Source of the DNA: Candidatus Micrarchaeia archaeon
Lineage (GTDB): Archaea; Micrarchaeota; Micrarchaeia; Burarchaeales; JACRGF01
Assembly (NCBI GenBank): GCA_038890815.1
Contig: JAWAFC010000001.1
Span: 68,456 to 132,455 of the forward strand
DNA: 64,000 nucleotides
Direction of reading: 5' to 3'
The notes beneath the pieces were generated by a model that saw only the letters and a program-made list of their open reading frames with translations, searched no databases and was not told where the DNA came from. Positions 5,192-12,547 of this stretch are shown in pieces (the first letter of the stretch is position 1; each line of letters begins with the position of its first letter). The position numbers and the translations under genes are program-made.

Positions 5192-6877
5192 ATGTCCCTC
5201 CCTTCCCCCACTGCGCCCCTCGAACAGTTCCTGCCCACCCTGAGAACAGCAATACAAACGAGCTGGGGAGGCGAGACATTCTGGTTTTCGATAGCTCTTA
5301 CCGCAATCCTCATCTCGTTCTTTTTCGTGGCAATCGCCTACATGCTGTCCGAGCTGTTGCGTTCGCCAGAGCTGCAGGCGTGGGCGAAGAACGAGCTTGT
5401 CGAGACGGCGGTGAGCGCGCTCATGGTGGGGCTTCTCTTCTCCTCGCTCACCGTGCTCAATGCGGTTGTAGCGGACATGACTGGCGGATATAGCCACATA
5501 GGCCTCGGCTATGCCTACCTCAACGAGACGCTGAACGACCTGACGCGCGTCTATATCGCCCTGCTGACGCTTGATGCCGGCATAGGCACGCTCGGCACGA
5601 TGGGCACAGTGCTCTACCCGCAGCTTTTCGGAATCCCCATCGGCACCCTGCTGCCCAGCCTCGGCATCAGCCCGCTGGTTGGGCTGACTATAGTGAATGG
5701 AGCTATTGTGAAGATCGCCGACGCCACCGCGCTCGCCATCGTGAATATACTGGCCCAGCAAGCACTGCTGGAGTTTATCTACGAGCAGTTCTTCACGTTT
5801 TTCCTGCCATTCGGCCTGATACTCAGGACATTCAGTCTGACGCGAAGGCTTGGCTCGACCATCATCGCGCTCGCCATATCGGGATACCTCGTGTATCCGC
5901 TCGCGCTCGTGCTCAATAAGGGCATCTATGAGTATGACAGAGATGTGATGGCGCAGTACAGCGCGGCTGGCGACATCCCGCCCGAGTGGAAGATTTCCGA
6001 GAGTGATCTCGCGCAGATAGGGAAGATCGCCTTTTTCTCGCCCCTCAGCACTGTGGGCGGGACCGGAGACTTCAACCTCACCTTTCTTCTCCAGGCACCC
6101 AATGGCACTTACGATGTGTGGTACAGAGAGTGGGAGGACAGCACGCCAACCGATTTCGTATGGCTCGGCGGAGGGACTTATACCGCAGGCGTGCCCGTTA
6201 ACTTCCCCGTGAGCAATCCGGGCGAAGGCCTCTTCGAGTACAGGGTTGTGGTGACAACGATAAATGCCACGCCCTGCAGCGAAGGATGCCCCACAGTTGT
6301 TAGGCCCGATGGCACGACTTATGGTGGGTGCGACCCGCGGGGTTATTGCCAGGACATGGCCGAGGCCAGCCTAAATGTCACAGTGAAGCCCGCATGCAAA
6401 TGGTATCAGGTGATGTGCTGGTTGAGGCGAGAGTACGAGCGGGCAGGGGAGGTGTGGAAATCGGTGGGTGGGCAGCTGCTTTTTGCCGGCATCACGGGCA
6501 TTGGAGTGATGGTCGGCTCGCCGCTGGTTAGAATACTTGGGGCGGTGGGCTCTGGCTATTTCCAAAGCCTCTGGCCCACCTATTATGTGTATGCTGCATA
6601 CGATTACATCACGTGCGATGCCAACACAGCACAACAGCCATGCTCATCGTGCAGAGGCAGCGTGCCGGCCTGGTGCCCCAACGCTGGCCTCACCGACAAT
6701 CCGACCATTGCCTCGCTGACACCGCCCGAGTGGGCACTGCCAATTGTGGTGAGAAAGCTGCTTGTGGTGACTGTGCTGACCGTCGTAGACATCATAATCG
6801 TCATAACATTCTTTCGCTCGCTGTCAAGCTCGCTCGGTGGAGAGACGCAGCTAGCTGGTATGAGCAAGTTGGTGTGA
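5192..6877 (+). CDS. Paralog 1 of a novel polytopic membrane protein family (561 aa). It has a large C-terminal extracellular domain that is Cys-containing and rich in N-glycosylation sequons.
   Basis: The ATG at 5192 is the first in-frame ATG beyond leuS; the ORF tool's 4355 start overlaps leuS. Shared family motifs are present: QAWAKNELVE after TM1, FFLPFGLILRTFSLTRRLGSTIIALAISGYLVYPLALV, and the C-terminal tail SLGGETQLAGMSKLV. The extracellular domain carries NxS/T sequons (NETLND, NLTF, NGTY, NATP, NVTV). Confidence 0.75.
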   Translation: MSLPSPTAPLEQFLPTLRTAIQTSWGGETFWFSIALTAILISFFFVAIAYMLSELLRSPELQAWAKNELVETAVSALMVGLLFSSLTVLNAVVADMTGGYSHIGLGYAYLNETLNDLTRVYIALLTLDAGIGTLGTMGTVLYPQLFGIPIGTLLPSLGISPLVGLTIVNGAIVKIADATALAIVNILAQQALLEFIYEQFFTFFLPFGLILRTFSLTRRLGSTIIALAISGYLVYPLALVLNKGIYEYDRDVMAQYSAAGDIPPEWKISESDLAQIGKIAFFSPLSTVGGTGDFNLTFLLQAPNGTYDVWYREWEDSTPTDFVWLGGGTYTAGVPVNFPVSNPGEGLFEYRVVVTTINATPCSEGCPTVVRPDGTTYGGCDPRGYCQDMAEASLNVTVKPACKWYQVMCWLRREYERAGEVWKSVGGQLLFAGITGIGVMVGSPLVRILGAVGSGYFQSLWPTYYVYAAYDYITCDANTAQQPCSSCRGSVPAWCPNAGLTDNPTIASLTPPEWALPIVVRKLLVVTVLTVVDIIIVITFFRSLSSSLGGETQLAGMSKLV

Positions 6878-6879
6878 GC

Positions 6880-10098: not shown

Positions 10099-11522
10099 TG
10101 AGCATGAACAGGTTGCTTGTTGTGCTGGGCACATTCGCGCTGGCGGGGTGCGTGAGCATATCCCCGCCCATTTCGACGAGCGCCGCGTACGCGTGCGGCA
10201 TAACGGCGAGCTGGGGCTCGTGGGCCGGCTTGGCCGCGCTGGGCGCGCTGCTCTCTTTCTTCATCCTTGTGCTCGTTTACATGGGAGCAACTGTGCTTGG
10301 CATCGCGGGCGCGGCGACGTGGGCGAAGAACGAGTTTTACCAGACGGCGGCGAGCCTCGTCATTGTGGCCAACCTCGTGCTGGCCGTGGGTGTGTTGTGC
10401 AGCCCGAGCTTTCCGGCACTTTTCGGACTCGACCCGAAACTCATCGGCATGCCGGCCGGCACAACGCCGAACCTGTATGACTATGCCTTTGAGTATGTGA
10501 GATGGCTGAATGAAAAAATAATAATTGGGTGGCTGCACGCTTTTGTGCTGCAGTGGCGCACGGCAATCGCCACGAGCTATGCGAGCGGCATGCAGCCGGG
10601 CGGGTATGGCGTCAGCGTGCAGCCCATGGCCGGGCTCTCGGCGCTTGAGAGCGGGCTCAACCTCATGCTGCAGTCCTTCACAATCGCCTGGATAACCAAC
10701 CTCGTGCAGGCCGAGATACTCAAGTTCATCCTCGTCTCCATGTTCAACATCGTGCTGCCCGTGGGTGTTGTGCTGAGGTGCTTCAGTTTTACGCGCGCAT
10801 TCGGTGGCGCGCTCATGGGCATTGCCGTAGCACTGTTCGTGTTCTATCCCATCCTGCTCGGAATAAACATGCTGGCGATTGCCGATGCCACCAATGCCGT
10901 GGTGGACGCCCTCTCCTCCCAGTACAGGTGCACGCCCGGCTCGACGACCGAATGCTGCGGCGGCCTGACATGCAATGCGGATGGGAGTTGCCCCCCATGT
11001 ATTTTTGCGGGAGAAGCCGACAACCCGAGCAAATGTTGCTCAGGGAAGTTTGATCCTAATCAGCCGGGCAGATGCCTTGAGCTCGGCTATCCTGGTGATG
11101 CATGCAGCGCGGACAGCGGGTGTTTCTCGGGAAAATGCGAGGGCGGCGTGTGCACGACGTGCAAAGTGTCCCAGTCCGCCTGGTCGGTGAGCGGAGAGGA
11201 TGCGCTGGGGATGCTCACTATTATTGGGAATGTGATATGGGTGGGCCTTGTGGCCTACTTCGCGCCCGTGCTGACATCGATGATGGCGATAGGCAGGCTG
11301 GGTGGAATGGCTCTGCTTAAGGGCGCGCTGGGCGGCACGTTGCTGGCGCTGCTGGGCGGCACATACGCGATCTTTGGGCTCATTAGGGTAGCCTCCTATA
11401 TCCTCATTGGGGCCATTCTGCTGCCGGCTTTCAATTTCATCTTGCTGGTAACCATCGCGCGCGACCTCTCGCGGTTCTTCGGAGAGGAGGTGGATGTGTC
11501 CAACCTCACGAGGATGATATGA
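10095..11522 (+). CDS. Paralog 5 of the novel membrane protein family (475 aa). It has a lipobox signal peptide and an ~85-aa Cys-rich extracellular insert.
   Basis: The N-terminus is MMSMNRLLVVLGTFALAGC. Shared motifs are TWAKNEFYQ, FNIVLPVGVVLRCFSFTRAFGGALMGIAVALFVFYPILLG and the tail FFGEEVDVSNLTRMI. The insert reads CTPGSTTECCGGLTCNADGSCPPC...CCSGKFDPNQPGRCLELGYPGDACSADSGCFSGKCEGGVCTTC. The ATGA start overlaps the upstream stop. Confidence 0.75.
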   Translation: MMSMNRLLVVLGTFALAGCVSISPPISTSAAYACGITASWGSWAGLAALGALLSFFILVLVYMGATVLGIAGAATWAKNEFYQTAASLVIVANLVLAVGVLCSPSFPALFGLDPKLIGMPAGTTPNLYDYAFEYVRWLNEKIIIGWLHAFVLQWRTAIATSYASGMQPGGYGVSVQPMAGLSALESGLNLMLQSFTIAWITNLVQAEILKFILVSMFNIVLPVGVVLRCFSFTRAFGGALMGIAVALFVFYPILLGINMLAIADATNAVVDALSSQYRCTPGSTTECCGGLTCNADGSCPPCIFAGEADNPSKCCSGKFDPNQPGRCLELGYPGDACSADSGCFSGKCEGGVCTTCKVSQSAWSVSGEDALGMLTIIGNVIWVGLVAYFAPVLTSMMAIGRLGGMALLKGALGGTLLALLGGTYAIFGLIRVASYILIGAILLPAFNFILLVTIARDLSRFFGEEVDVSNLTRMI

Positions 11523-12547
11523 TGTTGCAGGCGGATTTCGGGCAGGCAACGCAGGCTGCTGTCACGGCGGCTTGGACTACGGGGGCTGGGCTGGTGTGGC
11601 AGCAGGCTGCTGCGCTGGCCGTGCTGATATCCATATTTCTTGTGGCGCTCGCCTATATGGTCTCTGTAATTCTGGATCTGCCCGAGGCTAAAAGGTGGGC
11701 TCGGGGGGAATTCTTGCAGGCGATGGCCAGCGCCATGCTCGTGTTCGGCCTCATCGCCTTCACCGGCCTCATCTCCACTGGCATGGCAAACATCACGCGT
11801 GAGCTGGCTGCCAATAACCCGGTGCTGTCTGCCATTCCCCCAGGAGTCATCCAACCCGACAATCCATTCAGCTTAACGCACTTTTATCTGAACAGCACGC
11901 TGAAATGCATCAGGCTTTACTATGTCAAGGCGCTCCGCATTGCGTTGCTCGTGGATACGATGGCGAGTGTGACGCTGTCGAGCTATGGCGTGCATACCGT
12001 CACGGGCTGGCCCTTCTCGTATCCTTCCAACATGGCCCATCAGATAACCCAACTTTCGACATGGTTGCTCATCGCTAACTATTTCCAGAGACAACTTCTC
12101 AACTTTGTCGCGGACACCATGTTTACGATATTCCTGCCCCTCGGCGTTGTGCTGCGCGTGCTGCCCTACACGAGGGGCGCGGGCGCCTTCCTCATGGGGC
12201 TTGCCATAGGCATGTACCTGGTGTATCCCTTCAGCTATGCGCTCATACTTTCGGTGGGAGCCCAGCATGACCTGCTGAGCTGCGTGGAGTACAATGTGGA
12301 GGCGCTGAGGGAGCAGTGCGCGACACAGGAGGGCATCGCACAGCTGAGTTTTATATGGAAGGTAAAGAACACTGGGATAATAGCCTACCTAACCACTGTG
12401 GGCAGGCTCATCCCCTTCATGTTCATGGAAGCATACATATATCCGCTCATGGCGCTGACCATAACGTTCACGGCTGTGAAGCAGCTTTCCGATTTCCTGG
12501 GCGCGAACGTTGCCGAAATTGCACAGGGGCTGGTTAGATTAATATAA
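11519..12547 (+). CDS. Paralog 6 of the novel membrane protein family (342 aa). It has no lipobox; the N-terminal region leads into TM1.
   Basis: Shared motifs are a degenerate EAKRWARGEFLQ, FTIFLPLGVVLRVLPYTRGAGAFLMGLAIGMYLVYPFSYAL and the tail FLGANVAEIAQGLVRLI. The ATGA start overlaps the upstream stop. Confidence 0.75.
   Translation: MMLQADFGQATQAAVTAAWTTGAGLVWQQAAALAVLISIFLVALAYMVSVILDLPEAKRWARGEFLQAMASAMLVFGLIAFTGLISTGMANITRELAANNPVLSAIPPGVIQPDNPFSLTHFYLNSTLKCIRLYYVKALRIALLVDTMASVTLSSYGVHTVTGWPFSYPSNMAHQITQLSTWLLIANYFQRQLLNFVADTMFTIFLPLGVVLRVLPYTRGAGAFLMGLAIGMYLVYPFSYALILSVGAQHDLLSCVEYNVEALREQCATQEGIAQLSFIWKVKNTGIIAYLTTVGRLIPFMFMEAYIYPLMALTITFTAVKQLSDFLGANVAEIAQGLVRLI

Follow-up and report, generated by a model that had tools for sequence, protein, structure and literature searches.

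Tandem array of six paralogous membrane proteins in Micrarchaeota: conserved motifs and a possible role as an envelope platform

Introduction

The closest described counterparts of the gene array examined here are membrane subunits of secretion and DNA-transfer machines. VirB6/TrbL proteins, channel subunits of type IV secretion, are polytopic; A. tumefaciens VirB6 reportedly displays an N-out, C-in arrangement with five TM helices and a large outer loop. T2SSF proteins (PilC, GspF, TadB/C, FlaJ) are encoded next to ATPases of the T2SSE family, the motion of which they are presumed to transmit, and possess large cytoplasmic helical domains.

Rickettsia encodes five VirB6 paralogs, RvhB6a-e, whose TM-cytoplasmic core is conserved and whose large extensions vary (PMC2653234). 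The archaeal Ced/Ted systems for DNA import are domesticated and chromosomally encoded, and include a VirB6-like pore, a VirB2-like pilin, and a VirB4-like ATPase (PMC9905601). Their components are not recognised between lineages by BLAST, and the known archaeal VirB6-like proteins are detectable by sensitive profile methods only (PMC9905601). A resemblance between pilin and platform protein was reported for the pairs VirB2/VirB6 and CedA1/CedA (PMC9905601).

Gene organization of the array

Six tandem ORFs, p1 to p6, occupy positions 5192-12547 on the plus strand of the window, i.e. of the whole 64-kb stretch of DNA analysed. The sequence-only reading of this region had described them as one family of six copies. 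They are indeed true paralogs, with 22-31% pairwise identity over 200-370 residues in BLASTP (E 6e-9 to 1e-23) and a consistent MAFFT alignment; every string quoted in that reading was found in the translations. The setting of the array is chromosomal core (LeuRS, FtsZ), and the array was absent from IMG/VR contigs.

Gene p1 (5192..6877; 561 aa) is separated by a divergent spacer of 57 nt from the LeuRS gene on the minus strand. Within this spacer, ~27 nt 5' of the p1 ATG, lies a TATA-like element, TATTTAAAGC (5156..5165, plus strand), which, as read from the sequence, is a candidate archaeal promoter for an operon transcript with a short leader. Gene p2 (6880..7818) encodes 312 aa from the ATG at 6880, with an alternative GTG at 6874 that overlaps the p1 stop. 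Gene p3 (7808..8899) encodes 363 aa from the TTG at 7808 or ~358 aa from the ATG at 7823. The start codons of p4 (8896..10098; 400 aa), p5 (10095..11522; 475 aa), and p6 (11519..12547; 342 aa) overlap the preceding stop codons as ATGA, GTGA, and ATGA, respectively. Of the five junctions, three thus have 4-nt overlaps, as does p1/p2 if p2 starts from GTG 6874, which suggests coupled, stoichiometric synthesis of the array proteins. The p6 protein is the minimal version of the family and matches database protein P0007 with 100% identity.

A gene for a T2SSE-family secretion/pilus ATPase (12564..13877, plus strand; 437 aa; Pfam T2SSE, 5.7e-36) starts 17 nt 3' of p6 on the same strand and, in this lineage, probably closes the operon.

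Conserved motifs and predicted topology

Three motifs characterize the six proteins. The W-[AG]-[KR]-x-E box after TM1 is present in all of them, at 5381-5395 in p1 (WAKNE), 7021-7035 in p2 (WAKEE), 8027-8041 in p3 (WGKNE), 9157-9171 in p4, 10320-10334 in p5, and 11696-11710 in p6 (WARGE). Also common to all six is the turn L-P-x-G-x-x-L-R-x4-T-R-x-x-G between TM3 and TM4 (the R/R turn), located at 5804-5854 (LPFGLILRTFSLTRRLG), 7417-7467, 8441-8491, 9598-9648, 10755-10805, and 12134-12184 in p1 to p6, respectively. The C-terminal tail LGxxxxhxxLx[RK]h[IV] was identified in p1 (LGGETQLAGMSKLV, 6833-6874), p3 (LGGDIEIAGLTRLI, 8855-8896), p4 (LGADINLQALSKIV, 10054-10095), p5 (FGEEVDVSNLTRMI, 11478-11519), and p6 (LGANVAEIAQGLVRLI, 12497-12544).

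Some details of the earlier description require correction. A conserved tail is a feature of five paralogs, but p2 (terminus ...KLGG) and its positional orthologs at other loci end without it. In p3, p4, and p5, 'TM1' is preceded by a lipobox-like signal peptide (LLLLSGC in p3, LPAM_1, E 0.003); p4 also has a Cys-rich N-terminal stretch. The Arg and Thr-Arg residues and the first Gly of the proposed invariant 'GG' are the same in all six proteins, but the second Gly, replaced by A or S in p1, p2, and p6, is only 67% conserved.

MAFFT placed the three blocks in register across the six translations. The residues invariant in all six include, in p4 numbering, W88, E92, L235, G238, L241, R242, T247, R248, G251, A258, P266, and G388. 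In total, 15 invariant columns were observed, compared to a mean of 2.6 and a maximum of 5 after shuffling, in which residues were permuted inside each hydropathy block so that hydropathy was kept. Columns with at least 5/6 identity numbered 35 (shuffled mean 7.8, maximum 13). Since the shuffle maxima were exceeded and most of the invariant residues are not aliphatic but W, E, R, G, P, or T, low-complexity composition of the TM segments can be ruled out as the source of these blocks.

The same motifs are kept across the family and were rightly regarded as family-defining. Among 138 aligned members (p6 numbering), G209, R219, and P237 are invariant; R213, G222, E64, W27, L194, and G328 are at least 90% conserved; and W60, K62, and T218 reach 84, 83, and 83%. 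In 101 of 153 members, the tail motif lies at the very end of the protein. The three motifs constitute functional sites within a conserved core.

Each paralog is predicted to possess a five-helix core in N-out/C-in orientation. Net charge is +2.4 at the R-x5-R turn and negative in the two large loops, which together with the N-terminus contain nearly all cysteines. These statistics place all three motifs, including the tail described earlier as cytoplasmic, on the predicted cytoplasmic face and the variable, Cys-rich loops outside. In this topology, conservation lies in the cytoplasmic segments and variability in the outer loops; p1 has a predicted extracellular Cys-rich insert of roughly 270 aa between TM4 and TM5, and p5 a Cys-rich insert of roughly 90 aa past TM4. 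In an AF2 model of p6 (pLDDT 85.2, pTM 0.79), TM3 and TM4 form a tight hairpin at the R/R turn, and residues 331-341 form a terminal helix.

Occurrence and gene neighbourhoods

The family includes over 2,400 representatives at E<=1e-10, all with 'hypothetical' names only. Exactly six tandem same-strand family genes in conserved order were detected at 65 loci (window included), nearly all labelled Micrarchaeota; the organisms hosting these arrays are tiny and symbiotic. Cross-locus best matches fell at the same position in 77% of comparisons versus 17% by chance, which identifies the six genes as ancient, non-redundant orthogroups. The best matches of p1 were position-1 genes, while same-position values were 87% for p2 and 94% for p3, the best-conserved orthogroup. 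Two arrays are present in some MAGs.

The T2SSE ATPase adjoins the array only in the window and at loci L003, L005, and L011, which represent one clade among about 65 arrays. Its PDB sequence matches are A. fulgidus GspE2 (1e-56), CpaF (1e-47), FlaI (3.5e-40), and VirB11 (2e-23); with the NCBIfam FlaI model it scored 227 bits (cut-off 550). Relatives with 42-47% identity occur in housekeeping contexts, beside genes for FtsY, prefoldin, and eIF6, with no array nearby. In many arrays, both 6-kb flanks are free of ATPase genes.

At about nine loci of another clade, the array is flanked by a DUF87/AAA_10/TraG-P-loop ATPase (VirB4/HerA-like), small TrbC/VirB2- and T4SS_pilin-like proteins, and further membrane proteins. 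The array has gained secretion-type ATPase neighbours more than once, from two superfamilies in separate clades, with spacing of 17 nt or overlapping. The array-flanking VirB2-like pilins were the top eight non-family matches, among 3,305 ORFs, of the N-terminal SP-TM1-loop-TM2 module of the array proteins (hhalign Prob 51.5%, E 1.5e-4; four control membrane-protein clusters <=0.5%), a weak similarity limited to 39 columns within a hydrophobic hairpin. It parallels the VirB2/VirB6 and CedA1/CedA relation (PMC9905601). Elsewhere, a Cys-rich secreted protein of 1,000-1,400 aa is encoded directly 3' of gene 6 (11 loci and Burarchaeum), or proteins of 1,500-1,870 aa divergently upstream of the array (other clades). 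The 64-kb window contains no pilin, VirB4-like or other accessory homolog and, outside the array, no PilC/FlaJ-like polytopic protein evident by hydropathy.

Search for known relatives

Across 109 members, Pfam revealed no consistent match at E<=10; TrbL was found in 0/109, and none gave a T2SSF (PF00482) signal. NCBIfam contained no match for the family, and PDB sequence profiles none at E<=10. With the p6 model (pLDDT 85), Foldseek matches in PDB had TM-scores <=0.29, and no VirB6 chains were among the 50 matches listed. An hhalign comparison of the 138-sequence family profile with TrbL/VirB6 alignments of 4 and 23 sequences gave Prob 0.4-0.5%; a match of LPxGxxLRxFxFTR to PLGIxxLMFxxTR seen in the first run was not repeated in the second. 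No relationship of the array family to a known platform protein could be detected in sequence or fold, and membership in VirB6 is not supported by the profile and Foldseek tests. The array is novel as a system, and we infer its mechanism below.

A Tweety-homolog (TTYH) fold recurred as a weak, non-significant Foldseek match for both models (E 0.5-1.8, TM-scores 0.12-0.19). These five-TM eukaryotic proteins are fold-level look-alikes only, with no functional link.

Comparison with described systems

The array shares with VirB6/TrbL a polytopic N-out architecture of about five TM helices with a large extracytoplasmic loop and the C-terminus inside. Like RvhB6a-e, it consists of multiple paralogs in a host-dependent organism, in which conserved positions, a key Trp among them, cluster in the TM-cytoplasmic region and large extensions are variable (PMC2653234). 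As with VirB6, VirB2-like pilins and a VirB4-like ATPase keep company with the array in some Micrarchaeota, and the N-terminal hairpin resembles the cognate pilin (PMC9905601). However, VirB6 occurs in one to five copies, the array in six fixed orthogroups without profile or Foldseek similarity to VirB6/TrbL. Unlike type IV secretion loci, the array belongs to the chromosomal core and comes with neither relaxase nor coupling protein nor VirB8-10, and in the window its ATPase is of the FlaI/GspE2/CpaF type, with no pilin nearby. CedA/TedA, compared here by description, are single genes of Crenarchaeota, whereas the array comprises six paralogs and occurs in DPANN. T2SSF proteins also adjoin a T2SSE-family ATPase, but their bulk is cytoplasmic whereas that of the array proteins is outside, and the array is an operon of six paralogs without pilins or PF00482 signal.

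Possible function

From the observed paralogy, motifs, fixed six-gene order, predicted topology, and gene neighbourhoods we infer, with a probability of roughly 45%, that the six proteins assemble into a hetero-oligomeric platform or channel in the cytoplasmic membrane, belonging to a Micrarchaeota-specific surface transport or pilus apparatus. Each complex would most likely contain one copy of each paralog, possibly in a pseudo-sixfold ring. Each subunit would contribute its N-out/C-in five-helix core, a lineage-variable, disulfide-rich ectodomain and, on the cytoplasmic face, the W-A-K-x-E box, the Arg-x5-Arg/Gly/Pro TM3-TM4 hairpin, and (except in subunit 2) the C-terminal helix. This conserved face would be the common working surface, coupling to a hexameric secretion ATPase of FlaI/GspE/VirB11 type here and VirB4/HerA type in another clade; it may also bind adjacent subunits or substrate. 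The ectodomains would form an outward stalk meeting the envelope or host cell, and the role would be equivalent to that of VirB6/CedA (or PilC). For this reading we count the fixed number of six, positional orthology, gene overlaps, the conserved cytoplasmic face with the tail at the very terminus, the variable outer loops, the distribution of charge and cysteines, the ATPase neighbours, module-pilin resemblance, the Rickettsia VirB6 paralogs, and the chromosomal core setting. Against it we count the restriction of T2SSE adjacency to one clade, related ATPases alone elsewhere, arrays without a nearby ATPase, the missing accessory homologs in the window, the weakness of the module-pilin similarity, and the lack of a link to known platform proteins. 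ATPase docking and a gating loop, the roles suggested earlier for the motifs, are not established. The T2SSE ATPase adjoins the array in one clade only and has relatives standing alone, and other clades link the array to a VirB4/HerA-like ATPase or to giant secreted proteins; docking is one of several possible roles, and the motifs may equally mediate contacts between subunits or, through the Arg pair, bind lipid or substrate.

The lack of a nearby ATPase in most arrays, the solitary ATPase relatives, the giant secreted proteins beside arrays, and the large, variable, Cys-rich ectodomains would also suit a hetero-oligomeric envelope complex that works without a secretion ATPase, as an anchor or scaffold for an S-layer or giant adhesin or as a passive pore for host exchange, the ATPase of this lineage being a neighbour through rearrangement. 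We consider this somewhat unlikely, as it leaves unexplained both the cytoplasmic placement of the most conserved parts, including a motif at the free C-terminus, and the close spacing of ATPases of two superfamilies in separate clades. A stronger version of the platform reading, true homology to VirB6/TrbL/CedA within a domesticated type IV secretion or Ced-like DNA/protein transfer locus with six-fold expanded VirB6, is more doubtful still. The predicted topology fits that reported for VirB6, pilins and a VirB4-like ATPase flank the arrays of one clade, the array-adjoining ATPase and those of VirB11 type are both members of the T2SSE family, and pilin resemblance, the need for sensitive profile methods (PMC9905601), and VirB6 expansion in Rickettsia (PMC2653234) have precedents; however, the hhalign, Pfam, and Foldseek results speak against it, and the window ATPase is nearer to GspE2, CpaF, and FlaI than to VirB11.

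That the paralogs directly precede a FlaI/GspE2/CpaF-like ATPase, probably in a single operon, and that the window has no other evident PilC/FlaJ-like candidate, might indicate a diverged T2SSF platform protein (PilC/FlaJ/TadC), the usual T2SSE partner in archaeal type IV pili. This is highly improbable given the absence of PF00482 signal, the predicted N-out orientation, in which the loops outside are large and very little of the protein is cytoplasmic, the lack of pilin genes in the operon, and an ATPase link confined to one clade. Variable ectodomains and the MAGs with two arrays are consistent with six independent, redundant membrane proteins, such as variable surface receptors or small transporters. 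This explanation, and that of the blocks as a by-product of TM composition, has very little left to commend it: both are largely refuted by the fixed number and order of six genes, positional orthology across the phylum, a hydropathy-preserving shuffle control that was exceeded threefold, and invariant residues that are polar, Gly, or Pro.

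Paralogy and size of the family

Six tandem genes on the plus strand of the window (5192-12547), referred to as p1 to p6, encode proteins of 561, ~313, ~360, 400, 475 and 342 amino acids. The strings quoted for them in the sequence-only reading were all found in the window translations. BLASTP identities of 22-31% over 200-370 residues (E-values of 6e-9 to 1e-23) identify the six as true paralogs. The three proposed motif blocks, which are the W-box (W-[AG]-[KR]-x-E) after TM1, the R/R turn between TM3 and TM4, and the C-terminal tail (LGxxxxhxxLx[RK]h[IV]), were placed in register by MAFFT. 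The alignment has 15 columns invariant among the six. In a shuffle control, residues were permuted inside each hydropathy block only, which preserved TM layout and composition. The control yielded a mean of 2.6 invariant columns (maximum 5), and a mean of 7.8 columns (maximum 13) at 5/6 identity or higher versus 35 observed. The invariant residues are mostly W, E, R, G, P or T and not aliphatic. Since the alignment exceeds this control and its invariant residues are mostly non-aliphatic, the blocks do not simply reflect the composition of TM segments, as that reading had feared. Two of its details needed correction. In the reported Gly-Gly motif the first glycine is conserved, but the second is not conserved in p1, p2 and p6; and the tail, present in the other paralogs, is absent from p2. 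The same absence was seen in every lineage examined (window p2, 6880-7818; 7041-7949 in the related locus L001; database members P0010 and P0057), and this conserved asymmetry may indicate a seam or a particular contact within a complex.

The motifs persist far beyond the window. An exhaustive search of 1.84 billion representative proteins with the six-paralog profile recovered 3,043 representatives at E<=1e-3, 2,426 at <=1e-10 and 520 at <=1e-30; a word-indexed protein search found just 4-5 relatives, an underestimate compared with the exhaustive search. The ten representatives looked up were unnamed, 'hypothetical' or 'uncharacterised', and those with an organism label belonged to Candidatus Micrarchaeota, including Ca. 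Gugararchaeum and Ca. Burarchaeum. Of 153 members, 99 carry W[AGVS][KR]xE, 151 carry R-x(4,5)-R-x-x-G and 101 end precisely with the tail. G209, R219 and P237 (p6 numbering) are invariant in an alignment of 138 sequences, and R213, G222, E64, W27, L194 and G328 are more than 90% conserved. Neither Pfam (E<=1) nor NCBIfam models matched p1 to p6, no Pfam family recurred among 109 members at E<=10, and profiles of six and of 138 members retrieved no PDB chain at E<=10. The family was absent from IMG/VR viral contigs in a contig scan, and no description of it or of the sextet was found in the literature searched. With more than 2,400 representatives, it is 'dark matter' that can now be defined by three motifs and an invariant G/R/P triad; the predicted topology and a confident monomer model are further testable handles.

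Organization and conservation of the six-gene array

Stop/start overlaps of 4 nt (ATGA or GTGA) were found at three of the five junctions between p1 and p6. The p1/p2 junction shows the same overlap if p2 starts at GTG 6874, and with TTG 7808 as the p3 start, p2 and p3 share 11 nt. A TATA-like TTTAAA lies ~27 nt 5' of the p1 ATG, and the leucyl-tRNA synthetase gene is located upstream in divergent orientation. A T2SSE-family ATPase gene (12564-13877) follows p6 on the same strand after a gap of 17 nt. Beyond it lie a small minus-strand gene for Fe-S assembly and two tandem FtsZ genes on the plus strand. The first (14304-15380) was identified by its translation, and Tubulin and FtsZ_C domains are present in its ortholog at the syntenic locus L003; the second (15440-16504) matches Pfam Tubulin/FtsZ (2.7e-44) and FtsZ_C (8e-31). 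A 509-aa ORF on the minus strand (13878-15407) is for the most part spurious, being read antisense to FtsZ; the ~115 aa at its C-terminal end (about 13878-14250) alone represent FeS_assembly_P, a gene that L003 has in this position. The window array resides in a conserved housekeeping neighbourhood, and many related loci have FtsZ no more than a few kb from the array. In the GTDB MAG labelled Candidatus Micrarchaeia archaeon JZ-2_201808_bins_178 the six-gene array recurs between LeuRS and the ATPase, with a p3 copy 94% identical to that of the window. The p6 of the window is 100% identical to one database protein.

The position-3 orthogroup served as query against GTDB, each species being represented by one genome; this search revealed 179 relatives, and 80 loci were kept. 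Nearly all were from Micrarchaeota or Micrarchaeia MAGs, including Ca. Micrarchaeum sp., the complete genome of Ca. Fermentimicrarchaeum limneticum and two MAGs labelled 'ainarchaeum'. When the family HMM was run against six-frame ORFs of all loci, six tandem same-strand members were detected at every locus with a long enough contig, the position-3 type always being third; exactly six genes are present in 65 loci, window counted. The best match between loci fell at the same position in 77% of comparisons versus 17% by chance, reaching 94% for position 3, 88% for position 6 and 87% for position 2. Several MAGs contain two arrays of different clades. This positional orthology implies that duplication to six genes predates the radiation of the group and that all six copies were retained. 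Retention of six orthogroups is the pattern expected for distinct subunits of one complex, not for redundant copies. In this micrarchaeon ~7.4 kb is devoted to six non-redundant paralogs, a set that its relatives have kept in the same order phylum-wide.

Topology and predicted structure

According to hydropathy, the proteins comprise TM1, which in p3, p4 and p5 is preceded by a lipobox-like signal peptide, then the W-box, TM2, a variable loop of ~100 aa, an amphipathic QQxLLxF helix leading into TM3, the R/R turn, TM4, a variable and often Cys-rich loop, TM5 and the tail. Across the 138 sequences, the mean net charge is +2.4 in the R/R turn and -2.1 and -4.3 in the two large loops. Cysteines average 1.3-1.8 per sequence in the N-terminus and in each large loop versus 0.02-0.13 in the three motif segments. 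The AlphaFold2 model of p6, based on the 138-sequence alignment (pLDDT 85.2, pTM 0.79), contains very long helices (55-99, 116-149, 164-214 and 274-326), which continue outward from the TM segments and make up an outer helical bundle. In this model the TM3-TM4 hairpin turns at L215-P216, between R213 and R219, and a terminal helix spans residues 331-341. Hydropathy, the modelled helices and the distribution of charge and cysteines support a predicted topology that is N-out/C-in and places the three motifs on the cytoplasmic face. Among the matches listed, Foldseek comparison of both AlphaFold2 models with the PDB gave generic long-helix hits only (E >= 0.35, TM-score <= 0.29). A YidC-like insertase, which is a lipoprotein with five TM helices, was weighed as a candidate and rejected, since neither Pfam nor Foldseek gave a signal for it and the large loops are predicted to be extracellular.

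The lipobox-like signal peptides (L-[LA]-[SA]-G-C) of p3 (7808-8899), p4 (8896-10098) and p5 (10095-11522) have counterparts in two predicted secreted proteins of the window (18106-19026, minus strand; 26263-27942, plus strand). This sequence pattern suggests lipoprotein-type processing in this archaeon. A Cys-rich motif resembling the one in the p4 and p5 ectodomains recurs in the latter, 559-aa protein (Dicty_CTDC, 1e-5).

Genes associated with the array

The window ATPase is an intact enzyme (T2SSE, PF00437, 5.7e-36) with the Walker A motif GMPGSGKTT, as read from the translation. Its closest solved relatives are A. fulgidus GspE2 (2oap; 1e-56), CpaF (1e-47) and FlaI (3.5e-40), VirB11 being more distant (2e-23); it is not a FlaI equivalog (NCBIfam score of 227 bits vs a cut-off of 550). 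Among ~65 arrays, adjacency to this ATPase was observed only in the window and in L003, L005 and L011, which cluster together. The closest metagenomic relatives of the enzyme (42-47% identity) are encoded after FtsY, prefoldin, eIF6 and S19e genes, with no array or platform-type membrane gene beside them (L092, 7488-8828; L094, 3887-5206). The ATPases of these two loci look like an 'orphan' T2SSE clade. Because the adjacency is restricted to one clade and the closest relatives occur in array-free contexts, the ATPase link is real as an operon in the window but lineage-limited. These array-free relatives weaken the suggestion that the conserved sites dock an ATPase; the motifs themselves stood, and the interpretation offered for them in the sequence-only reading is supported only in part.

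A second clade displays a T4SS-like cluster around the array (L018, L019, L020, L023, L026, L029, L037, L072 and L039, the latter being Ca. Fermentimicrarchaeum limneticum, CP058998.1). Directly upstream are one to three genes for small proteins that have a signal peptide and two hydrophobic helices apiece and show sub-threshold matches to TrbC/VirB2 (1.6e-4) and T4SS_pilin (2.6e-4). Downstream are genes for two membrane proteins of ~275 aa and a DUF87/AAA_10/TraG-P-loop ATPase of ~520 aa (AAA_10 3.7e-13, DUF87 6.5e-13); the cluster also includes a coiled-coil protein and a membrane protein of ~725 aa. A VirB2-like pilin of L039 had no match among PDB sequences at E<=10, and no description of this cluster around the array was found in the literature searched. 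In other clades, the gene directly 3' of gene 6 encodes a secreted, Cys-rich protein of 1,000-1,400 aa that carries a lipobox-like signal peptide (L001, 13244-15702; L040, L045, L049, L056, L060, L064, L074, L076, L079, L080 and L084), and inserts enlarge the position-3 paralog to about 1,600 aa. Further clades have proteins of 1,500-1,870 aa upstream of the array. The 64-kb window contains no homolog of these accessory genes, including the VirB4-type ATPase and the VirB2-type pilin. The two ATPase types, the VirB2-like pilins and the giant surface proteins are candidate partners for testing.

Proposed role and relation to known systems

From the paralogy, motifs, fixed order, predicted topology and gene neighbourhoods we infer a hetero-oligomeric platform or channel that would contain one copy of each of the six proteins. 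On its cytoplasmic side, the conserved surface formed by the W-box, the Arg pair with its Gly/Pro hairpin and the C-terminal helix with its free end would contact a hexameric ATPase, neighbouring subunits or the substrate, and the variable, disulfide-rich ectodomains would build the outward part. We assign this reading as a whole a probability of about 0.45. An envelope scaffold or pore that works independently of an ATPase would agree with the lineage-limited T2SSE adjacency and is somewhat unlikely, given that ATPase genes of two types accompany arrays of different clades. A diverged PilC would account for the adjacent co-oriented T2SSE ATPase, a feature that the window array (17 nt) shares with T2SSF platform proteins (PilC/GspF/FlaJ), in this clade only; with no Pfam match to T2SSF (PF00482) in the six proteins or in 109 members, it is very improbable. 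The same holds for six independent proteins or an artefact, which the fixed order of the genes and the shuffle control speak against.

True homology to VirB6 is a stronger claim covering a subset of the platform reading. The context and topology of the arrays recall VirB6/TrbL and the archaeal CedA/TedA pores. The topology of VirB6/TrbL (N-out, about 5 TM, a large extracytoplasmic loop and a cytoplasmic C-terminus) is matched by that predicted for the family. VirB6/TrbL is encoded with a VirB4-type ATPase and a VirB2-type pilin, both absent in the window but present in about 9 related loci. In Rickettsia, five VirB6 paralogs combine a conserved TM-cytoplasmic core with large variable extensions (PMC2653234). 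The Ced/Ted DNA-import system, compared by published description only, consists of a CedA/TedA-like pore, the CedA1/TedC pilin and the VirB4-like ATPase CedB/TedB. Pfam revealed no match to TrbL/VirB6 (PF04610) in the six proteins (E<=1) or in 109 members (E<=10). Chains of VirB6, whose fold has been solved for example in the R388 T4SS structure, did not figure among the 50 Foldseek matches listed for the p6 model. The comparison set contained four verified TrbL/VirB6 proteins from plasmids and was then extended to 23 sequences; hhalign of the 138-sequence profile against it returned Prob 0.4-0.5% and E 0.13, a comparison underpowered by the small TrbL alignment without secondary structure. 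A match between LPxGxxLRxFxFTR and PLGIxxLMFxxTR in the first hhalign run was not reproduced in the second and was dropped. An HMM of the first ~95 residues (signal peptide, TM1, W-box and TM2) had VirB2-like pilins as its top 8 non-family matches of 3,305 ORFs (E 4e-4 to 0.01). For this module and the pilins, hhalign gave Prob 51.5% and E 1.5e-4, versus <=0.5% for four other membrane-protein clusters of the same loci used as controls. The similarity is short and hydrophobic, and it is therefore treated as a lead. Beltran et al. reported a comparable relation of CedA1 to the CedA N-terminus and of VirB2 to VirB6 (PMC9905601). Membership in VirB6/TrbL is not established and actual homology is quite unlikely; as a working analogy the comparison is reasonable.

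Among known kinds of machine, the sextet fits best as the platform of a secretion or pilus ATPase, although it may well prove to be something new. The most far-reaching reading would make it a membrane machine of a class not recognised before, in which six ancient paralogs with no relation to VirB6 or PilC form a hetero-hexameric ring. Such a machine would be near-universal in Micrarchaeota, could be driven by hexameric ATPases of either the T2SSE or the VirB4/HerA superfamily, and would serve these ultra-small symbionts as a conduit for uptake or exchange of DNA, lipid or protein with hosts. Taken in full, this is unlikely. Micrarchaeota are obligate, genome-reduced symbionts, and the array may bear on how they exchange material with their hosts. 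If it is the platform of a T4SS- or Ced-like apparatus, conjugation-derived machinery would extend to DPANN archaea; the T4SS of bacterial Patescibacteria, reportedly described recently, would then be a parallel case.

Other features of the window

A tRNA-like gene of 99 nt on the minus strand (23491-23589) was called by ARAGORN as tRNA-Ile with anticodon AAT. At the gathering threshold, Rfam covered 23492-23548 only (29.3 bits), an extent different from the ARAGORN call; this is probably an intron-bearing archaeal tRNA. The gene at 39719-41371 (minus strand) encodes a secreted PQQ-like beta-propeller of 550 aa (Beta-prop_ACSF4 2e-65, PQQ_2 2e-55) with a CarboxypepD_reg-like domain at the C-terminus, which is a probable further surface protein.
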